A stretch of DNA of 64,000 bases from Escherichia phage VEc20: the sequence record MN022785.1; one strand, given 5' to 3'. Shown one piece after another: positions 1 through 63,894 of the stretch (position 1 is the stretch's first letter; each line of letters begins with the position of its first letter). The position numbers and the translations under genes are program-made. Below the pieces are notes generated by a model. It saw only the letters and a program-made list of their open reading frames with translations, was not told where the DNA came from and did no database searches.

Positions 1-61
1 GACCCATAAATAAATCTTTATCTTCTGTCATGAAGATAATACCAGCTGATAATGTTTTCAT
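1..61 (-). CDS. 5'-partial ORF (N-terminus MKTLSAGIIFMTEDKDLFMG..., runs off window start); possibly Nudix/NudE-like
   Basis: ATG at 61-59 overlaps the TGA stop of ORF 58..546 (ATGA coupling); position matches T4 nudE next to the e.x genes. Confidence 0.3.
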   Translation of the reverse strand, partial: MKTLSAGIIFMTEDKDLFMG

Positions 62-546
62 TTTAATTTCCTGCATTCAGTGATAAAGTTATTTAAATTT
101 TGAGCATATTTCTTTTCATCAAAAATCTTTTGTTGTCTGCGTAAACGCCATGGCATTTCAATGAACATACGCCATATTCCTGATAATACTGCTGCTGTAA
201 AAATATTAACAAGTATAGTTAAAAGAACCCAATCTCCTATTCTGTCCATTGGATTTTTTATAAAAAAGTAAAATACGAACGATGATATAGGAAGACTAAT
301 GATATACCACAGAAGAACCTTCTTATCTGTGAACCAATCAGCATTCGTTAACTTAGCGCGACCGTTTTGAATACATACGAACTTATCATCTGTTACAGTA
401 AATGGCTTAGCTGCTTGATATCCCATTCTAAACTCCCTAATCAACAAATTTTTCATATCTTCGGAACAACCATTCCAGTCAACTCTATCAACTGAAATGC
501 CATCATCCCCATCATCTAAATCATACCAGCGAGTTTTTAAAATCAT
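58..546 (-). CDS. small membrane protein (T4 e-region-like), C-terminal TM helix
   Basis: ORF track 162 aa; hydrophobic segment; ends ...FITECRKLK with ATGA overlap to next gene. Confidence 0.6.
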   Translation of the reverse strand: MILKTRWYDLDDGDDGISVDRVDWNGCSEDMKNLLIREFRMGYQAAKPFTVTDDKFVCIQNGRAKLTNADWFTDKKVLLWYIISLPISSFVFYFFIKNPMDRIGDWVLLTILVNIFTAAVLSGIWRMFIEMPWRLRRQQKIFDEKKYAQNLNNFITECRKLK

Positions 547-905
547 TTAATTTTCCTACAATCACTCACAAACTCTTTCATTGACTCATTTTCAATATAA
601 GACATGTAGCTATTATATTCTTTTAATTGTATTTTGTAATCTTTTTTTCTTTGCCAATTTATTTTAAAATTATCATAATGAAAATATAAAATGATACCAA
701 AGAATGAAAACAATGAAATAATTTTAGTATAACAAAGCTCACTCCAAACTTCTGTTATATTTACTGTGCCGTCGATGTTTAAAATAAGACAGTCAATTAA
801 CAATCCAAAAAGACTACCCGCAAGAGCTGCAGCCAACGCTACAGCAAAAATTAAAAATGACTCAGGAAGCGAATATTTGACTTTATTTAGTTTTGGCTTT
901 TGCAT
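543..905 (-). CDS. small membrane protein, two predicted TM helices
   Basis: ORF track 120 aa; hydrophobic segments; ends ...EFVSDCRKIK; ATGA overlap with downstream ORF. Confidence 0.6.
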   Translation of the reverse strand: MQKPKLNKVKYSLPESFLIFAVALAAALAGSLFGLLIDCLILNIDGTVNITEVWSELCYTKIISLFSFFGIILYFHYDNFKINWQRKKDYKIQLKEYNSYMSYIENESMKEFVSDCRKIK

Positions 906-1279
906 CGTGATTCCTTAACAAATTTCATAATTTCATCAAATTCATACATATCTAGCTTAAGCTGGTGTTCCTTTTTAATCTTTTTACACTGAGCTTTCCA
1001 ATCACGTACACGTTTACGATAATGTCTTCCTTGATACCAGTATCCTACCCAATTTACGGGTACTAATAAAAGTGGAACTATTAATGGAAGAATTAGCATT
1101 AACACAAGTATTTCGCCAGAATCAATATCAGTCATAACATCTAAAACACCTCCAATAATCAATAGAATTACAAATGATATGAGTATAACAGGACCTATTA
1201 ACACATCAGTAGAAATTATCTGACGCTTTGGTTCATACTTCACAGGTTTACTTGGAAGGTATAGTGATGGTTTTGACAT
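887..1279 (-). CDS. small membrane protein, two predicted TM helices
   Basis: ORF track 887..1300 trimmed to MSKPSLYL start with RBS AAGGAAT inside upstream gene tail; ends ...KFVKESRCKSQN. Confidence 0.55.
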   Translation of the reverse strand: MSKPSLYLPSKPVKYEPKRQIISTDVLIGPVILISFVILLIIGGVLDVMTDIDSGEILVLMLILPLIVPLLLVPVNWVGYWYQGRHYRKRVRDWKAQCKKIKKEHQLKLDMYEFDEIMKFVKESRCKSQN

Positions 1280-1850
1280 ATTCTCTACATTCCTTAACAA
1301 ATTTTTCTAGTAATAAATCACTTTCAAAATTGGGATTTTCTACAAATTTATCAAAAAGATCATCAACAATAGTTAAGATATTCTTTTTACTAAGAATACG
1401 TTTATTTTCATGCTTCGTTTCAGAATCAACTATAAGAGTAAAGAAATATTTCTTGCCCTGAAATTTTACAGTAGTATCAATATAAAATAAATTTGACTTT
1501 TGTAAATTACGTTTAAACCATGCGTCACTTAAACTATAAACACCGAGATAATCAAAATCGTCGTTTAAATAACAAACCGTCCATTCAGGAGAAATGAAAT
1601 CAGTAAATTCAACATCAAAATCACACGTCAATGAATGAATTGATTCAATACTGTTAATGAGTATTCCAGGACGTATTAAAGACTTTTTACCTCTAGAAAA
1701 TCTTCCGGAAAGGCTTTCATCAGTTTCATATGAAGACCCCCAATAGTAATTACGTCCTTCTGCCATGCGTTTAAGAGCATTTAGTAATTGGTCTGGAACA
1801 TCAACCTGTCTTTGGAACTCTTCAAACATTGAATTGAAATCACTTTGCAT
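1248..1850 (-). CDS. hypothetical protein
   Basis: ORF track 202 aa; second ATG has AGGA RBS; C-terminal ...KFVKECREY junction motif. Confidence 0.6.
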   Translation of the reverse strand: MQSDFNSMFEEFQRQVDVPDQLLNALKRMAEGRNYYWGSSYETDESLSGRFSRGKKSLIRPGILINSIESIHSLTCDFDVEFTDFISPEWTVCYLNDDFDYLGVYSLSDAWFKRNLQKSNLFYIDTTVKFQGKKYFFTLIVDSETKHENKRILSKKNILTIVDDLFDKFVENPNFESDLLLEKFVKECREYVKTITIPSK

Positions 1851-1897
1851 TTTCATTCCTATTTACTCCAAGTATAAGGGGCCGAAGCCCCTTATCA

Positions 1898-2491
1898 TTA
1901 TTTCAGAGAATTAATGTATTCCTGAACATCGGCAGAGGTAGTTTCAACCCCAGAAATATTACCGTTAAAGGTTTCAACTCGAGCAAGGGTATCTTCAATA
2001 TCAACCTTAGTCAGTGCTGCAATTTCAACTACATCATCAGCAGTACTAATTCCAAGGGCATTTGCTGCACGAGTTTCACGGATATATTCCAATTTAACCG
2101 CAAGTTCTTGACGAGCATCATCTAACTCAACTACTTTCTTGGCGATTTCAATTCGCATTTCAGCATAACCGTCAGCCTTAGTAGTCAACTGCTCAGCTGT
2201 TCGACGATATAGTAAACCGAGTTTAGCATGCATTGTTACATCTTGGCCTTCGGAAAGAAGTTTACGAATTTCACGCTCTTTTGATTCGGCCTGTCGATTC
2301 TTTTCGATAACAAGTTCACGAATACGTTTTTCTTCGTTAATAGATTTAACAGAAGCAGTTTTTAGATCTTTAATTTTATCAAGTAGTTTTGCTGCTGCAG
2401 CAGTATACTGTTCTTCGACAGATAGATTTTTAGCCATAGCAGAACCAAGTTTAGTGCGAATAAACTCAACAATTTTCTTCAGTGTGTTCAT
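1898..2491 (-). CDS. coiled-coil protein (possible PspA/IM30-like pattern, unverified)
   Basis: 197 aa, strongly charged heptad-rich sequence; followed by GGGGC-UUCG-GCCCC hairpin. Confidence 0.6.
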
Positions 2492-2593
2492 AGTATTTCC
2501 TTAGGTTAATTGAGATTTAAAATCCGTAGGAGTTATAATACTCTATCGTCAAATTATAGGCTCATAATATCTCAATCATGAGCCTGCGTAAAC

Positions 2594-2857
2594 TTATTTC
2601 ATATTATTGAAATATTCTTCTGCGATTTCGTCGTTATCATGGTAAACTTTAGAAGACAGTTTAACATAACCTTCTGCTGTGAACATATTAATCACAACTT
2701 TTACAGTATACCACTGACCGTCTTCATTACCCATTACTGCGTAAGTTTCAAACATCGGATGATCAGGACCGATAACTTTAATATCATTCACTGTACGACC
2801 GAAATCTTCTGAAACGCATTTCATAAAGAAGTTGAACAGTTCGCCGTAATTATCCAT
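2594..2857 (-). CDS. hypothetical protein (87 aa)
   Basis: ORF track 2594..2911 trimmed: start MDNYGELF at 2857 lies downstream of promoter 2902-2930 and has GGAG RBS. Confidence 0.55.
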   Translation of the reverse strand: MDNYGELFNFFMKCVSEDFGRTVNDIKVIGPDHPMFETYAVMGNEDGQWYTVKVVINMFTAEGYVKLSSKVYHDNDEIAEEYFNNMK

Positions 2858-2901
2858 TTCATTCTCCAAGTTGTTTTTCTGTATCAGTAGTTGATAGTTG
2901 T

Positions 2902-2930
2902 ATAGTACCATGGAAGAACAGGGATGTAAA
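2902..2930 (-). promoter_or_regulatory. sigma70-like early promoter candidate (-35 TTTACA, 17-nt spacer, -10 TACTAT)
   Basis: plus-strand tgtaaa ... atagta upstream of ORF 2594..2857. Confidence 0.5.
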
Positions 2931-3062
2931 CAGTTTTGTGAAAAAATTTTTAAAAAGTTTTAGGGAATTCTAGGGTCAGGAGGGACAATTAAAAGGTAGG
3001 ATAATATATTATAAAGGGTATAAACTAAATGATGCCTAGAGAGACAAGGAAAGGCCTAGATA

Positions 3063-3091
3063 CCAAAAAGCCCCAACCTTTTGGTCGGGGC
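3063..3091 (-). terminator. rho-independent terminator after the internal-protein-like gene
   Basis: minus-strand hairpin AGCCCCGACC-AAAA-GGTTGGGGCT followed by TTTTTGG. Confidence 0.65.
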
Positions 3092-3099
3092 TAAGAATG

Positions 3100-3561
3100 T
3101 TATTTGATTTGTTTAGCAGACCAAATGCGGTCTTTGATGATTTTTTGGAGGTCTTCAACATACTCTAGGTCATGAGCATGTGGATTATCTTTGAAACTAT
3201 GAGCTCGCGCAAGTTTCTGGCCTTCGGTCTTAATTATCAAAAGTTCTTTAAGAATTGCTTCATACCTAGAGATAATTCCTTTAGCAATATTTTTTTCTTG
3301 TGCTGCTTTAGGGTCAGCCTTAGGAGCAGGTTTACCAGAAGGTTTTTCGAAAGCCGCGCCAGTAGCAACCAGGCTTTTCCAGGCGGTGGTAACATAGTTA
3401 CCCACAAAGCCTTCAGCTCTCATATCGTCGTAGAACTTGTACCGAGATTCGTCAGAAGCATCTTTATAAGAATATTTACCAGCTTTAATAGCAGCAGTTG
3501 CTACAGCGCGAACATCTGAAGCGGATGCTTCGGTCATTAAAAATTGAGCATAAGTTTTCAT
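3100..3561 (-). CDS. internal-protein-like late protein with capsid-targeting-type N-terminus (MKTYAQFLMTE)
   Basis: 153 aa; AGGAAA RBS; own late promoter TATAAATA upstream and rho-independent terminator downstream; N-terminus resembles T4 IP leader MKTYQEFIAE. Confidence 0.65.
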   Translation of the reverse strand: MKTYAQFLMTEASASDVRAVATAAIKAGKYSYKDASDESRYKFYDDMRAEGFVGNYVTTAWKSLVATGAAFEKPSGKPAPKADPKAAQEKNIAKGIISRYEAILKELLIIKTEGQKLARAHSFKDNPHAHDLEYVEDLQKIIKDRIWSAKQIK

Positions 3562-3598: not shown

Positions 3599-3627
3599 TA
3601 AAAAGCCCCAACCTTTCGATCGGGGCT
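3599..3627 (-). terminator. rho-independent terminator ending the tRNA/stable-RNA transcription unit
   Basis: minus-strand hairpin GCCCC...GGGGC followed by TTTTT, then the late promoter. Confidence 0.6.
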
Positions 3628-3934: not shown

Positions 3935-4285
3935 TTAATATTCTTTTAAAGAATCAATATATTCACGGCGTTTACGCCACAAATCAATTGCTTCATACGC
4001 GGATTCAGCATTTCGAATTAGCCGGCATTTATGTAAAGACTTATGATTTTGATATTGTGTAGATAACGGAATTGTATCTAAAAGGTCTTTACGATCAAAA
4101 TATTCGTAACCATCTAAACCAAATGAACGATTTTTGAGAAATTGCCAATGACCATATTCGTTTTCGACATAAACATAATCTGCATGCTGATAAAGCAAAT
4201 TAATTACACGTTCAGAAATAACAGTATCATTATGATTAAAATAGAATGTTAAATCATGAACTACTAAATAAACATTACCTTTCAT
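3935..4285 (-). CDS. hypothetical protein (116 aa) embedded between tRNA-Arg and the stable RNA
   Basis: ORF with GAGGAAAAT RBS directly before ATG; no recognisable motif. Confidence 0.6.
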   Translation of the reverse strand: MKGNVYLVVHDLTFYFNHNDTVISERVINLLYQHADYVYVENEYGHWQFLKNRSFGLDGYEYFDRKDLLDTIPLSTQYQNHKSLHKCRLIRNAESAYEAIDLWRKRREYIDSLKEY

Positions 4286-4303: not shown

Positions 4304-4379
4304 TGGTCGAGGCAGTAGGGATCGAACCTACGACCTAGGACTTAGAAGGTCCTTGCTCTTCCTTCTGAGCTATGCCCCG
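4304..4379 (-). tRNA. tRNA-Arg (anticodon TCT)
   Basis: hand-folded cloverleaf: acceptor CGGGGCA/TGCCTCG, anticodon loop CTTCTAA, T-arm GTAGG-TTCGATC-CCTAC, CCA encoded. Confidence 0.85.
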
Positions 4380-4383
4380 TAAT

Positions 4384-4459
4384 TGGGGTGACCGATGGGA
4401 GTCGAACCCATGACTACGAGAATCACAATCTCGAGTTCTACCAACTGAACTACGGCCAC
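4384..4459 (-). tRNA. tRNA-His (anticodon GTG)
   Basis: acceptor GTGGCCG/CGGTCAC, anticodon stem CGAGA/TCTCG loop TTGTGAT, T-arm ATGGG-TTCGACT-CCCAT, CCA encoded; no encoded G-1. Confidence 0.7.
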
Positions 4460-4573
4460 ATTAATACCTACTCCAACAATCAAGATGTCTTCACACGAAA
4501 TTAAGAGAAGAGTGATCAGTTCAACCCCTATAATCGCGTCAAGTAGATATTAATGTGACAGTTGTCACAAATT

Positions 4574-4648
4574 TGGCGGACGTGATAGGATTCGAACCTA
4601 TAACCAATCGCTTAACAGGCGATCGCTCTGCCATTGAGCTACACATCC
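4574..4648 (-). tRNA. tRNA-Asn (anticodon GTT)
   Basis: acceptor GGATGTG/CACGTCC, anticodon stem ATCGC/GCGAT loop CTGTTAA, T-arm ATAGG-TTCGAAT-CCTAT, CCA encoded. Confidence 0.8.
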
Positions 4649-4652
4649 AAAT

Positions 4653-4739
4653 TGGTGGGGAGTGGTGGAGTCGAACCACCCGAGTCGCAATGACAATGAA
4701 TTTACAGTCCACACCGCTACATCTACGGGATAACTCCCC
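4653..4739 (-). tRNA. tRNA-Tyr (anticodon GTA), class II with long variable arm; D-arm fold uncertain
   Basis: acceptor GGGGAGT/ACTCCCC perfect, T-arm GGTGG-TTCGACT-CCACC, anticodon loop CTGTAAA with G-U-containing stem, 87 nt. Confidence 0.55.
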
Positions 4740-4748
4740 AAATTAATT

Positions 4749-4823
4749 TGGTGGCCCTGGGTGGAATTGAACCACCATCTGGCGATTATGAGTCGCTTGC
4801 TTGAACCTTCCAGCTACAGGGCC
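4749..4823 (-). tRNA. tRNA with anticodon CAT (Met-type; probably the T4-like lysidine-modified tRNA-Ile)
   Basis: acceptor GGCCCTG/CAGGGCC, anticodon loop CTCATAA, T-arm GGTGG-TTCAATT-CCACC, CCA encoded. Confidence 0.8.
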
Positions 4824-4824
4824 T

Positions 4825-4900
4825 TGGTGCTGATTGACGGAATCGAACCGCCGACCTTCTCATTACAAGTGAGTTGCTCTACCTACTGAGCTAAATCAGC
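4825..4900 (-). tRNA. tRNA-Thr (anticodon TGT)
   Basis: acceptor GCTGATT/AATCAGC, D-arm GCTC-AGTAGGTA-GAGC, anticodon loop CTTGTAA, T-arm GGCGG-TTCGATT-CCGTC. Confidence 0.85.
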
Positions 4901-4905
4901 AAAAC

Positions 4906-4995
4906 TGGCGGAGGCGATAGGATTTGAACCTATGAGTCGCCGGAGCGACTGCCGGTTTTCAAGACCGGTGCATTAAACCACTCTGCCACGCCTCC
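4906..4995 (-). tRNA. tRNA-Ser (anticodon TGA), class II
   Basis: acceptor GGAGGCG/CGCCTCC, anticodon stem CCGGT/ACCGG loop CTTGAAA, long variable arm, T-arm ATAGG-TTCAAAT-CCTAT. Confidence 0.85.
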
Positions 4996-4997
4996 AG

Positions 4998-5071
4998 TCT
5001 CCGTGGCAGGATTTGAACCTACGACATTCTGCTCCCAAAGCAGACGCTCTACCAAACTGAGCTACACGGAG
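4998..5071 (-). tRNA. tRNA-Pro (anticodon TGG); CCA not encoded
   Basis: acceptor CTCCGTG/CACGGAG, anticodon stem TCTGC/GCAGA loop TTTGGGA, T-arm GTAGG-TTCAAAT-CCTGC. Confidence 0.8.
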
Positions 5072-5081
5072 TAAATTAAAT

Positions 5082-5155
<74 letters not shown>

Positions 5156-5160
5156 AAATT

Positions 5161-5247
5161 TGGTGCGAGAAGTGGGACTCGAACCCACAAGGAAATCATT
5201 CCGCAGCATTTTAAGTGCTGTGCCTTTACCAATTTGACCATTCTCGC
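5161..5247 (-). tRNA. tRNA-Leu (anticodon TAA), class II
   Basis: acceptor GCGAGAA/TTCTCGC, anticodon stem CAGCA/TGCTG loop CTTAAAA, T-arm GTGGG-TTCGAGT-CCCAC, 87 nt. Confidence 0.85.
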
Positions 5248-5248
5248 G

Positions 5249-5321
5249 CTGGGAATAAAGGACTCGAACCTTTGCATCTAGCAGTCAAAGTGCTATGCCT
5301 TACCAACTTGGCTAATTCCCA
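5249..5321 (-). tRNA. tRNA-Gln (anticodon TTG); CCA not encoded
   Basis: acceptor TGGGAAT/ATTCCCA (U1-A72), anticodon stem TAGCA/TGCTA loop CTTTGAC, T-arm AAAGG-TTCGAGT-CCTTT. Confidence 0.8.
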
Positions 5322-63645: not shown

Positions 63646-63894
63646 TTACTTCAGTGTTACCACAAAGTGACGAACTGCTTTTCGTGCAGCAGAAGCCAAA
63701 GGCTTAGCATATTTAAGTTCATCTTTTTCCTGAAGCTCAGCAGCTAATGCAGTTTGAGCAGGATTCAGATGTTTGAAATAACGCAGGATTTCAAGAGCTT
63801 CGGCTTCAACATCAATAGATGCGCCATAGTTTTCGTGACCATTATTCCATGCGTTTCGTTGCAGTTCAAGAGCGTGTTGTAATTGTTTAATCAT
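63646..63894 (-). CDS. rIII: rIII-like lysis-inhibition accessory protein
   Basis: 82 aa, the length of T4 rIII, upstream of the 30.x cluster. Confidence 0.5.
   Translation of the reverse strand: MIKQLQHALELQRNAWNNGHENYGASIDVEAEALEILRYFKHLNPAQTALAAELQEKDELKYAKPLASAARKAVRHFVVTLK

Follow-up and report, generated by a model that had tools for sequence, protein, structure and literature searches.

The stretch of DNA analysed here, referred to as the window, comprises 64,000 nucleotides (nt) of Escherichia phage VEc20 (MN022785.1). Positions 1-3000 of the window are those of a Tequatrovirus (T4-like phage) and are 98-99% identical to many genomes, such as SfPhi01 and HP3. The left end of the window is collinear with the T4 interval e.8-e.6-e.5-e.4-e.3-e.2-nudE, and T4 e.7 is absent from it. 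Four consecutive minus-strand genes of this interval, e.5, e.4, e.3 and e.2, encode proteins that end in one common peptide, hydrophobic-x-x-F-[I/V]-x-x-C-R followed by 0 to 15 mostly basic residues. This C-terminal peptide is conserved, and the DNA that encodes it also supplies the ribosome-binding site of the next gene.

All genes of the chain and the features within them lie on the minus strand. The e.5 orthologue (1248-1856) encodes a soluble protein of 202 amino acids (aa) ending in LLEKFVKECREYVKTITIPSK* and was assigned by its match to phrog_2607 (1e-109) and by T4 collinearity. The e.4 orthologue (887-1279, ATG at 1279; 130 aa; phrog_2604, 1.4e-70) and the e.3 orthologue (543-905; 120 aa; phrog_2330, 2.4e-59) encode hairpin proteins with two transmembrane (TM) segments, ending in EIMKFVKESRCKSQN and MKEFVSDCRKIK, respectively. 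The e.2 orthologue (58-546; phrog_2203, 5e-78) is intact and encodes 162 aa, in which an N-terminal domain of about 75 aa precedes a 2-TM hairpin and the tail reads LNNFITECRKLK*. Each PHROG match was whole-length and to the protein's own family, and the e.4 protein was 89.2% identical to that of T4. In Kyte-Doolittle windows of 19 residues, the TM hairpins were located at aa 31-49 and 57-75 of e.4 (1055-1189; hydropathy 2.85 and 3.04), aa 19-37 and 57-75 of e.3 (681-851; 2.47 and 1.78) and aa 78-96 and 106-124 of e.2 (175-315; 1.96 and 2.14), and hydropathy gave no TM segment in e.5. The chain runs into the 5' end of nudE, a Nudix hydrolase gene (1-61), whose start ATG at 59-61 overlaps the e.2 stop. 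On the other side lies e.6 (1898-2491), which encodes a conserved, all-helical protein of 197 aa and precedes the motif-bearing genes in every related locus.

The six core residues are encoded at 1284-1301 in e.5 (F-V-K-E-C-R; e.4 start ATG at 1277-1279), at 905-922 in e.4 (F-V-K-E-S-R, with the Cys one residue later; e.3 start ATG at 903-905), at 555-572 in e.3 (F-V-S-D-C-R) and at 70-87 in e.2 (F-I-T-E-C-R). In the last two, the AGGA of the ribosome-binding site of e.2 and nudE, respectively, lies within the C-R-K codons. We counted the pattern F[VIL].[ED][CS]R in the 130 open reading frames (ORFs) of at least 50 aa in the window, taking about 20,200 aa in 84 non-overlapping ORFs. Four matches were obtained, one per gene in e.5, e.4, e.3 and e.2 and all within the last 17 residues, against 0.075 expected anywhere and 0.006 expected in tails from composition. 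Chance is excluded as the source of the four shared tails.

From e.5 to nudE the genes form a single chain without gaps, and each tail encloses the Shine-Dalgarno site and start of its successor. A 16-nt exact repeat, AAATTTGTTAAGGAAT, occurs at 1289-1304, where it holds the e.5 tail and the e.4 ribosome-binding site, and again at 910-925, where it holds the e.4 tail and the e.3 ribosome-binding site. The third junction, TGTAGGAAAATTAAATGA (543-560), contains the e.3 tail, the Shine-Dalgarno site, the e.2 start and the e.3 stop; the fourth, TGCAGGAAATTAAAATGA (58-75), contains the same elements for e.2 and nudE. The overlaps were 32 nt (e.5/e.4), 19 nt (e.4/e.3), 4 nt (e.3/e.2) and 4 nt (e.2/nudE). 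The AGGA is located 6-7 nt before the starts of e.3, e.2 and nudE and 11 nt before that of e.4.

The original prediction, made from the letters of the window alone, had described four minus-strand genes in the position of T4 e.2-e.8, three with predicted TM helices, and these proved to be e.5, e.4, e.3 and e.2 themselves by PHROG matches and by synteny from e.6 to nudE, with two hydropathy segments in each of e.4, e.3 and e.2. Its shared tail was likewise found in all four, and the tail codons do double as the AGGA ribosome-binding site of the next gene. However, it had ended e.5 and e.4 at ...CREY and ...SRCK, where nine (VKTITIPSK) and three (SQN) further residues follow in the overlaps with the next genes, so that the two proteins extend 11 and 5 residues beyond the F..R core. 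The ATGA stop/start overlap proposed for the junctions holds for e.3/e.2 and e.2/nudE but not for the two longer overlaps, and the common junction DNA is exact only in the 16-mer at e.5/e.4 and e.4/e.3.

A looser tail pattern (aromatic, hydrophobic, x, x, hydrophobic, K/R) was present in 7 of the 84 tails, against about one expected. It ends e.6 (1898-1915, EYINSLK*), e.8 (2594-2611, EYFNNMK*), a 116-aa ORF at 3935-4285 (3935-3958, EYIDSLKEY*) and a distant ORF (63646-63663, HFVVTLK*). Since three of the seven are the strict cases, the looser pattern is only suggestive.

Functions for these proteins were not recovered by database searches. All 14 relatives of e.5 obtained from the protein database bore a precomputed Pfam tag, PF26876; e.5 had no match in our local Pfam copy, which the PF26876 model probably postdates. 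For e.2 to e.6 and for ten proteins representing other families with the motif, no match in Pfam, NCBIfam or PADLOC passed the threshold, and the e.5 and e.6 profiles matched no PDB sequence. With hmmsearch, the e.5 profile was run against 1.84 billion representative proteins and returned five close relatives or fragments and no remote homologue, and word-indexed searches with e.3 and e.5 returned Tequatrovirus sequences only, plus one from a Mosigvirus. We considered e.6 as a PspA/ESCRT-III or BAR-like protein, for which the fold matches were not specific. No described function or shared motif for e.2 to e.5 was found in the literature that could be searched.

GenBank product names in this interval are contradictory. 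The e.3 protein is called 'sulfurtransferase' or 'DNA primase' and the e.5 protein 'site-specific RNA endonuclease', and the similarity notes for e.2 and nudE in the T6 record cite 'DNA primase' and 'glutaredoxin'. None of the names given to e.3, e.5, e.2 and nudE was backed by the profile searches here. The T4 reference NC_000866 (L003, 560-1061) also differs from positions 58-546 of the window in that two frameshifts break e.2: a -1 shift where the run ATAAAAAATCC is one A short, and a +1 shift further on, where there is an extra base (TCTAGGGATATGG vs TCAGGAATATGG). The split gene is annotated as a 102-aa ORF plus a 160-nt 'gap'. The e.2 gene likewise matched in two pieces in T4 record KJ477684 and in phage CM8. 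The T4 nudE annotation is five codons longer, its ATG arising where the codons for E and C adjoin in the e.2 tail (GAATGC).

To follow the motif beyond the window, related loci, annotated and from several genera, were anchored on the conserved neighbour e.6. The motif was present in at least seven groups, namely Tequatro-, Mosig-, Dhaka-, Kanagawa-, Karam- and Klebsiella-type phages and the Aeromonas Biquartavirus. In Mosigviruses the tails read ...EQFIMECREY... (e.5), ...EFVKEIRCK... (e.4) and ...NFIKECRK* (e.3), in Dhakaviruses ...RFIAECREY..., ...TFIKECKS* and, for e.2, ...SFIEECRK*, and in Kanagawaviruses ...DFVDQCRA... and ...SFIKGCRN.... The e.5-like protein of Aeromonas phage 44RR ends in LFVDYCRRTASKK*, and the next annotated gene is 68 nt off. 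When the carriers were clustered, about 28 families were distinguished at BLAST level. Their bodies are of three types, namely soluble e.5-like proteins (180-290 aa), 2-TM hairpin proteins (84-195 aa) and further soluble proteins (92-117 aa). Each genome had a single soluble carrier of the e.5-like type, plus two to five carriers in the membrane.

Two comparisons were made by position. When the first gene after e.6 was picked by position alone, F[IV]xxC was found in the tail of 34 of 36 distinct cases, and the two exceptions were frameshifted e.5 genes. In 41 e.6-anchored loci, none of the 293 ORFs in the 4 kb upstream of e.6 had the tail motif, compared with 116 of 337 downstream, and only three motif matches were internal rather than C-terminal. 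The motif is shown to mark, across the lineage, the small accessory proteins that T4-like phages encode downstream of e.6.

Two side observations were made in the same loci. A frameshift divides e.5 into two ORFs in one IMG/VR Tequatrovirus genome (L019, 4636-5251) and in Enterobacter phage PG7 (L017, 4656-5179). Directly downstream of the motif genes in Mosig-, Dhaka-, Kanagawa-, Karam- and Klebsiella-type phages there is a second tandem family of two to six small acidic proteins (L008, 3731-4525; L015, 5522-6987; L014, 4278-5327; L016, 5710-6305; L017, 5302-5828). These proteins end in G-W-V-S-S-S-x-x-C* (variants WYTSSC* and WFNSSMSC*), usually followed by TAAGGAAAnnnATG; none of this family was found in the window.

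Codon usage was then compared with the amino acids it encodes. Among 133 distinct junction DNAs, the Arg codon was AGR in 62 and CGN in 60, the Cys codon TGT in 55 and TGC in 52, and the Phe codon TTT in 96 and TTC in 37. The use of both disjoint codon families for Arg indicates selection on the amino acid and not on the RNA sequence. Within families, conservation of the core residues was 0.73-1.00 and that of the rest of the protein 0.36-0.84, a comparison biased by the selection of members through the motif. The Shine-Dalgarno core was present in 104 of 132 related junctions, and its placement varied: it fell on the K-E, C-R, R-G, E-E or K-G codons, or past the motif entirely. The motif was always 6-26 residues from the stop codon, and the next start usually followed 11-46 nt after the F codon (median 26). 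In about 15% of carriers, the next gene began at least 29 nt past the stop (29-98 nt) and the motif was still kept; the FLEYCR family has gaps of 30-64 nt to the next gene. By these codon and spacing patterns, the conserved entity is shown to be the peptide rather than the coupling signal, with selection holding amino acids and not nucleotides. A prohead-protease site (I/V-x-E) was tried as the conserved feature and rejected, since no more than about 37% of families have E at +3.

The Shine-Dalgarno site within the tail can be put down to ordinary translational coupling. With no gaps between the genes, the codons of each tail also hold the signals that begin the next gene, its Shine-Dalgarno site and start codon, and overlap was seen in 31 of 71 same-strand neighbouring ORF pairs of the window when counted crudely. 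Translational dependence of each gene on the preceding one is predicted. The RNA-level role of the junction is real despite the conservation of the peptide, as seen in phage moha, where e.3 (L009, 3394-3491) has lost about 240 bp internally but its final 98 nt, which include the tail, Shine-Dalgarno site and ATGA, have been kept. The RNA folds of the four window junctions were no better than those of shuffled sequences (z = 0.67, 1.17, -1.74 and 0.53).

The junction also works as a recombination joint. Yersinia phage PST and the PP01- and ZN18-type Tequatroviruses are without e.2, and their e.3 has a hybrid tail, ...FVIDCRKLK*. The deletion of the e.2 cassette is flanked by repeats that correspond to the junctions at 543-560 and 58-75 of the window. 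The crossover lies within TGCAGGAAA, with the e.3 tail on its left and the e.2/nudE junction on its right. In the phages lacking e.2, e.3 is still in frame and nudE is still coupled, and at least 12 records matched the hybrid junction in one piece at 99.4-100% identity. The dhabil-type Dhakaviruses lack the e.4-like gene of the VR-type phages, and the dhabil e.5 tail, ...ECREYAKEVQNGTA*, joins parts of the tails that e.5 and the e.4-like gene have in the VR type, with the crossover in the Shine-Dalgarno/start region (AAAGGGGTTCAAAATG / AAGGAGGTTCGTAATG). Because the same 15-20-nt junction recurs, whole genes can be gained or lost in frame with neither function broken. Within single genomes, tail DNA was nearly identical between e.5 and e.4 in Tequatroviruses (16 of 16 nt) and between e.5 and e.3 in Mosigviruses (17 of 18 nt), which suggests exchange between junctions.

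The charge distribution of the hairpin proteins bears on where the tail would be. In e.4, e.3 and e.2, a basic N-terminus or an N-terminal domain is followed by the 2-TM hairpin, a basic stretch, a helix of 30-45 aa and the motif. The N-termini are basic, the loop between the TM segments is acidic and the stretch after the second is strongly basic, so that by the positive-inside rule both termini are predicted to be inside and the tail to be cytoplasmic. In the family-weighted profile, position -3 of the motif is hydrophobic and the Arg is followed by K, R or G. With its hydrophobic residues at -3, 0, +1 and +4, the motif fits the spacing of one side of an amphipathic helix. Residues 181-196 of e.5 were helical, with low confidence, in an AlphaFold2 model.

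We propose that the conserved peptide shared by the T4 accessory genes e.5 to e.2 forms a common cytoplasmic docking or oligomerisation helix, a reading to which we assign a probability of about 0.6. The tail would be the end of a predicted amphipathic helix on the cytoplasmic side of the membrane hairpin in e.4, e.3 and e.2. Such a helix may tie the soluble e.5 and the inner-membrane hairpin proteins together at the cytoplasmic face of the membrane; alternatively, all tails may bind one shared phage or host partner. The presence of one soluble and two to five membrane carriers per genome fits tail-mediated assembly or a shared partner. New gene bodies may have acquired the tail through duplications or recombination events that took in the junction.

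Several points weigh against this proposal. The e.5 model was poor (pLDDT 57), and a fold search with it found nothing. Cys is replaced by S, V, I or M and Arg by K or I in some family members, and no single motif residue is therefore absolutely required. The families were gathered by a regular expression for the motif, which makes the logo and the within-family conservation partly circular; only the chance count in the window, the test of the first gene after e.6 and the upstream/downstream comparison at e.6 were motif-blind or controlled. For the recombination joint, two indel events only were analysed, each of which may have been a gain or a loss.

The alternative that survives best takes the tail for a pure relic: a single membrane-protein gene would have been duplicated together with its coupling signal, and the inherited tail would be held only as a ribosome-binding site. 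A tandem duplication of this kind had been put forward in the original prediction, and the adjacency of the genes and the 2-TM-plus-tail architecture common to them agree with it. The e.4 and e.3 proteins share the N-terminus M-x-K-P-x-L, the 16 identical nt at the e.5/e.4 and e.4/e.3 junctions give identical codons for KFVKE, cassette indels occur at junctions, and the moha remnant of e.3 retains only its junction. The e.3 protein also cross-matched the PHROG of e.4 (phrog_2604) with E = 1.5e-3, and full-length hhalign probabilities were 83.6% for e.3-e.4 (87 columns) and 89.4% for e.3-e.2. However, similarity outside the last residues, the lack of which the original prediction had named as refuting it, could not be demonstrated, since these probabilities collapsed to 4.3% and 0.6% when the tails were trimmed. 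Raw scores after trimming, compared with reversed-sequence controls, were 19.9 vs 14.0 for e.3-e.4, and 15.6 vs 19.6 and 15.7 vs 17.2 for the pairs with e.2. Over all 66 pairs of TM families there was a small excess over reversed controls (paired Wilcoxon p = 0.006), and three pairs exceeded every control. As the trimmed matches were barely above or no better than the controls, homology of the e.2, e.3 and e.4 bodies is not demonstrable.

The soluble body of e.5 is unrelated, and its tail was the sole profile similarity to the TM families. Duplication cannot explain the tails on e.5-like and other soluble bodies. A stretch of only 4-6 nt is enough for a ribosome-binding site, whereas F, I/V, C and R all persist through codon changes (AGR and CGN being used equally), the position of the Shine-Dalgarno site relative to the motif varies, and the motif is retained where no gene follows closely. 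In addition, about 28 families bear the motif, out to the Aeromonas phages. Duplication of a hairpin gene is plausible for e.4 and e.3; as an account of the tail as a whole, the relic explanation appears to us improbable, though of the alternatives it is the one to be taken most seriously.

If the tail is a portable functional tag and not a family relic, the boldest form of this idea is that it acts as a nascent peptide in the exit tunnel, stalling the ribosome at the end of the upstream gene and setting termination-reinitiation on the next start. Conservation at the amino-acid level on unrelated bodies, the position of the motif 6-26 residues from the stop and mostly 11-46 nt before the next start, and the lack of junction RNA structure that might otherwise explain coupling would all agree with pausing. 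The distances to the stop and to the next start are nevertheless variable, about 15% of carriers are without a nearby downstream gene, known arrest motifs are not resembled, and the amphipathic-helix pattern is what would be expected of a folded interaction helix. We therefore regard pausing as very unlikely. If true, it would be a peptide-encoded translational-coupling device common to about 28 otherwise unrelated phage gene families. In a less radical form, the tail would possibly be a C-terminal address tag bringing diverse bodies to one inner-membrane machine, for which e.6 is a candidate.

That an RNA signal (a repressor operator, a nuclease site or a structured coupling element) is conserved, with the likeness of the peptides a by-product, is scarcely credible in spite of the 16-nt and ~18-nt junction repeats in the window, as across genera the nucleotides differ and the amino acids stay, Arg switches between AGR and CGN codons, and the four junction RNAs fold no better than shuffles. 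The sequence AAAUUUGUUAAGGAAU resembles the RegA SELEX consensus AAAAUUGUUAUGUAA; a putative RegA operator is disfavoured because the nucleotides vary between genera.

Other features were observed near the chain. A perfect GC-rich hairpin (ATAAGGGGCTTCGGCCCCTTAT; core GGGGCTTCGGCCCC) lies between e.6 and e.5 at 1874-1895 on the minus strand and lacks a U-tract on the coding strand. Conserved in T4, T6 and HY01, it might serve in RNA stability or processing or act as a weak terminator. Two near-identical terminator-like hairpins (AGCCCCGAyCrAAAGGTTGGGGCT, then TTTT) at 3069-3092 and 3604-3627 flank a 153-aa ORF at 3100-3561, an arrangement that resembles a cassette bounded by repeated regulatory hairpins. 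The N-terminus of this ORF, MKTYAQFLMTE, looks like the capsid-targeting sequence of T4 internal proteins. Eleven tRNA genes (Arg, His, Asn, Tyr, Met, Thr, Ser, Pro, Gly, Leu and Gln) lie at 4304-5321 on the minus strand, compared with eight in the T4 reference, and no segB-like ORF was found between them.

The T4 ORFs themselves, translational coupling and shuffling at boundary repeats are already known. What appears to be undescribed in the searchable literature is a lineage-wide C-terminal motif on unrelated bodies and the triple use of one stretch as peptide, ribosome-binding site and recombination joint. Few viruses have been studied as well as T4, but no function is assigned to e.2-e.8 or to most of the genes in its plastic regions. 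The shared motif offers a handle on function, with one bait peptide and three residues to mutate, and it suggests that these ORFans form one functional set.

Overlapping stop/start coupling, by ATGA or longer overlaps, is common in T4 and in other dense phage operons. The chain described here is alike in that the 3' end of each gene already holds the Shine-Dalgarno site and the start of its successor. It differs in that the overlapped stretch is also a conserved peptide motif of successive genes, whereas coupling needs none. Ribosome arrest peptides of the SecM, MifM and ErmCL class also have a segment conserved at the peptide level near the end of an upstream ORF and beside a downstream start. 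The tail has no sequence resemblance to them, and its spacing is variable.

The internal proteins of T4 are virion proteins that carry the capsid-targeting sequence, a shared N-terminal peptide on unrelated bodies which is cleaved by the prohead protease. The two cases are alike in having a short terminal peptide on otherwise unrelated small proteins in the same genome region. A shared terminal peptide on unrelated bodies suggests a common destination or partner. The motif described here, unlike the capsid-targeting sequence, is C-terminal and is found on membrane and cytoplasmic accessory proteins, for which processing is not known.

The junctions themselves can be compared with PeSLs, intergenic promoter-plus-terminator units that mediate modular shuffling in the hyperplastic regions of T4-type phages (PMC2839356; Comeau et al. 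2014, PMC4122927). Both are short repeats at gene boundaries in a plastic region, and in both recombination deletes or inserts whole ORFs; indels bounded by repeats, as in PeSLs, were found for the e.2 cassette and the e.4-like cassette of the Dhakaviruses. A PeSL-type promoter was represented in the chain by weak matches only (9-10/12), none coinciding with a junction, and the four junctions contained no terminator-like site and no significant hairpin. In contrast to PeSLs, the junctions consist of coding sequence and a ribosome-binding site, and recombination between them yields an in-frame hybrid tail. Recombination at the junction thereby offers a route for moving the tail onto a new body, and the junction shows how dense phage operons can take up or shed genes with reading frames and expression left intact. 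It is the coding-sequence counterpart of the intergenic PeSL shuffling cassettes.

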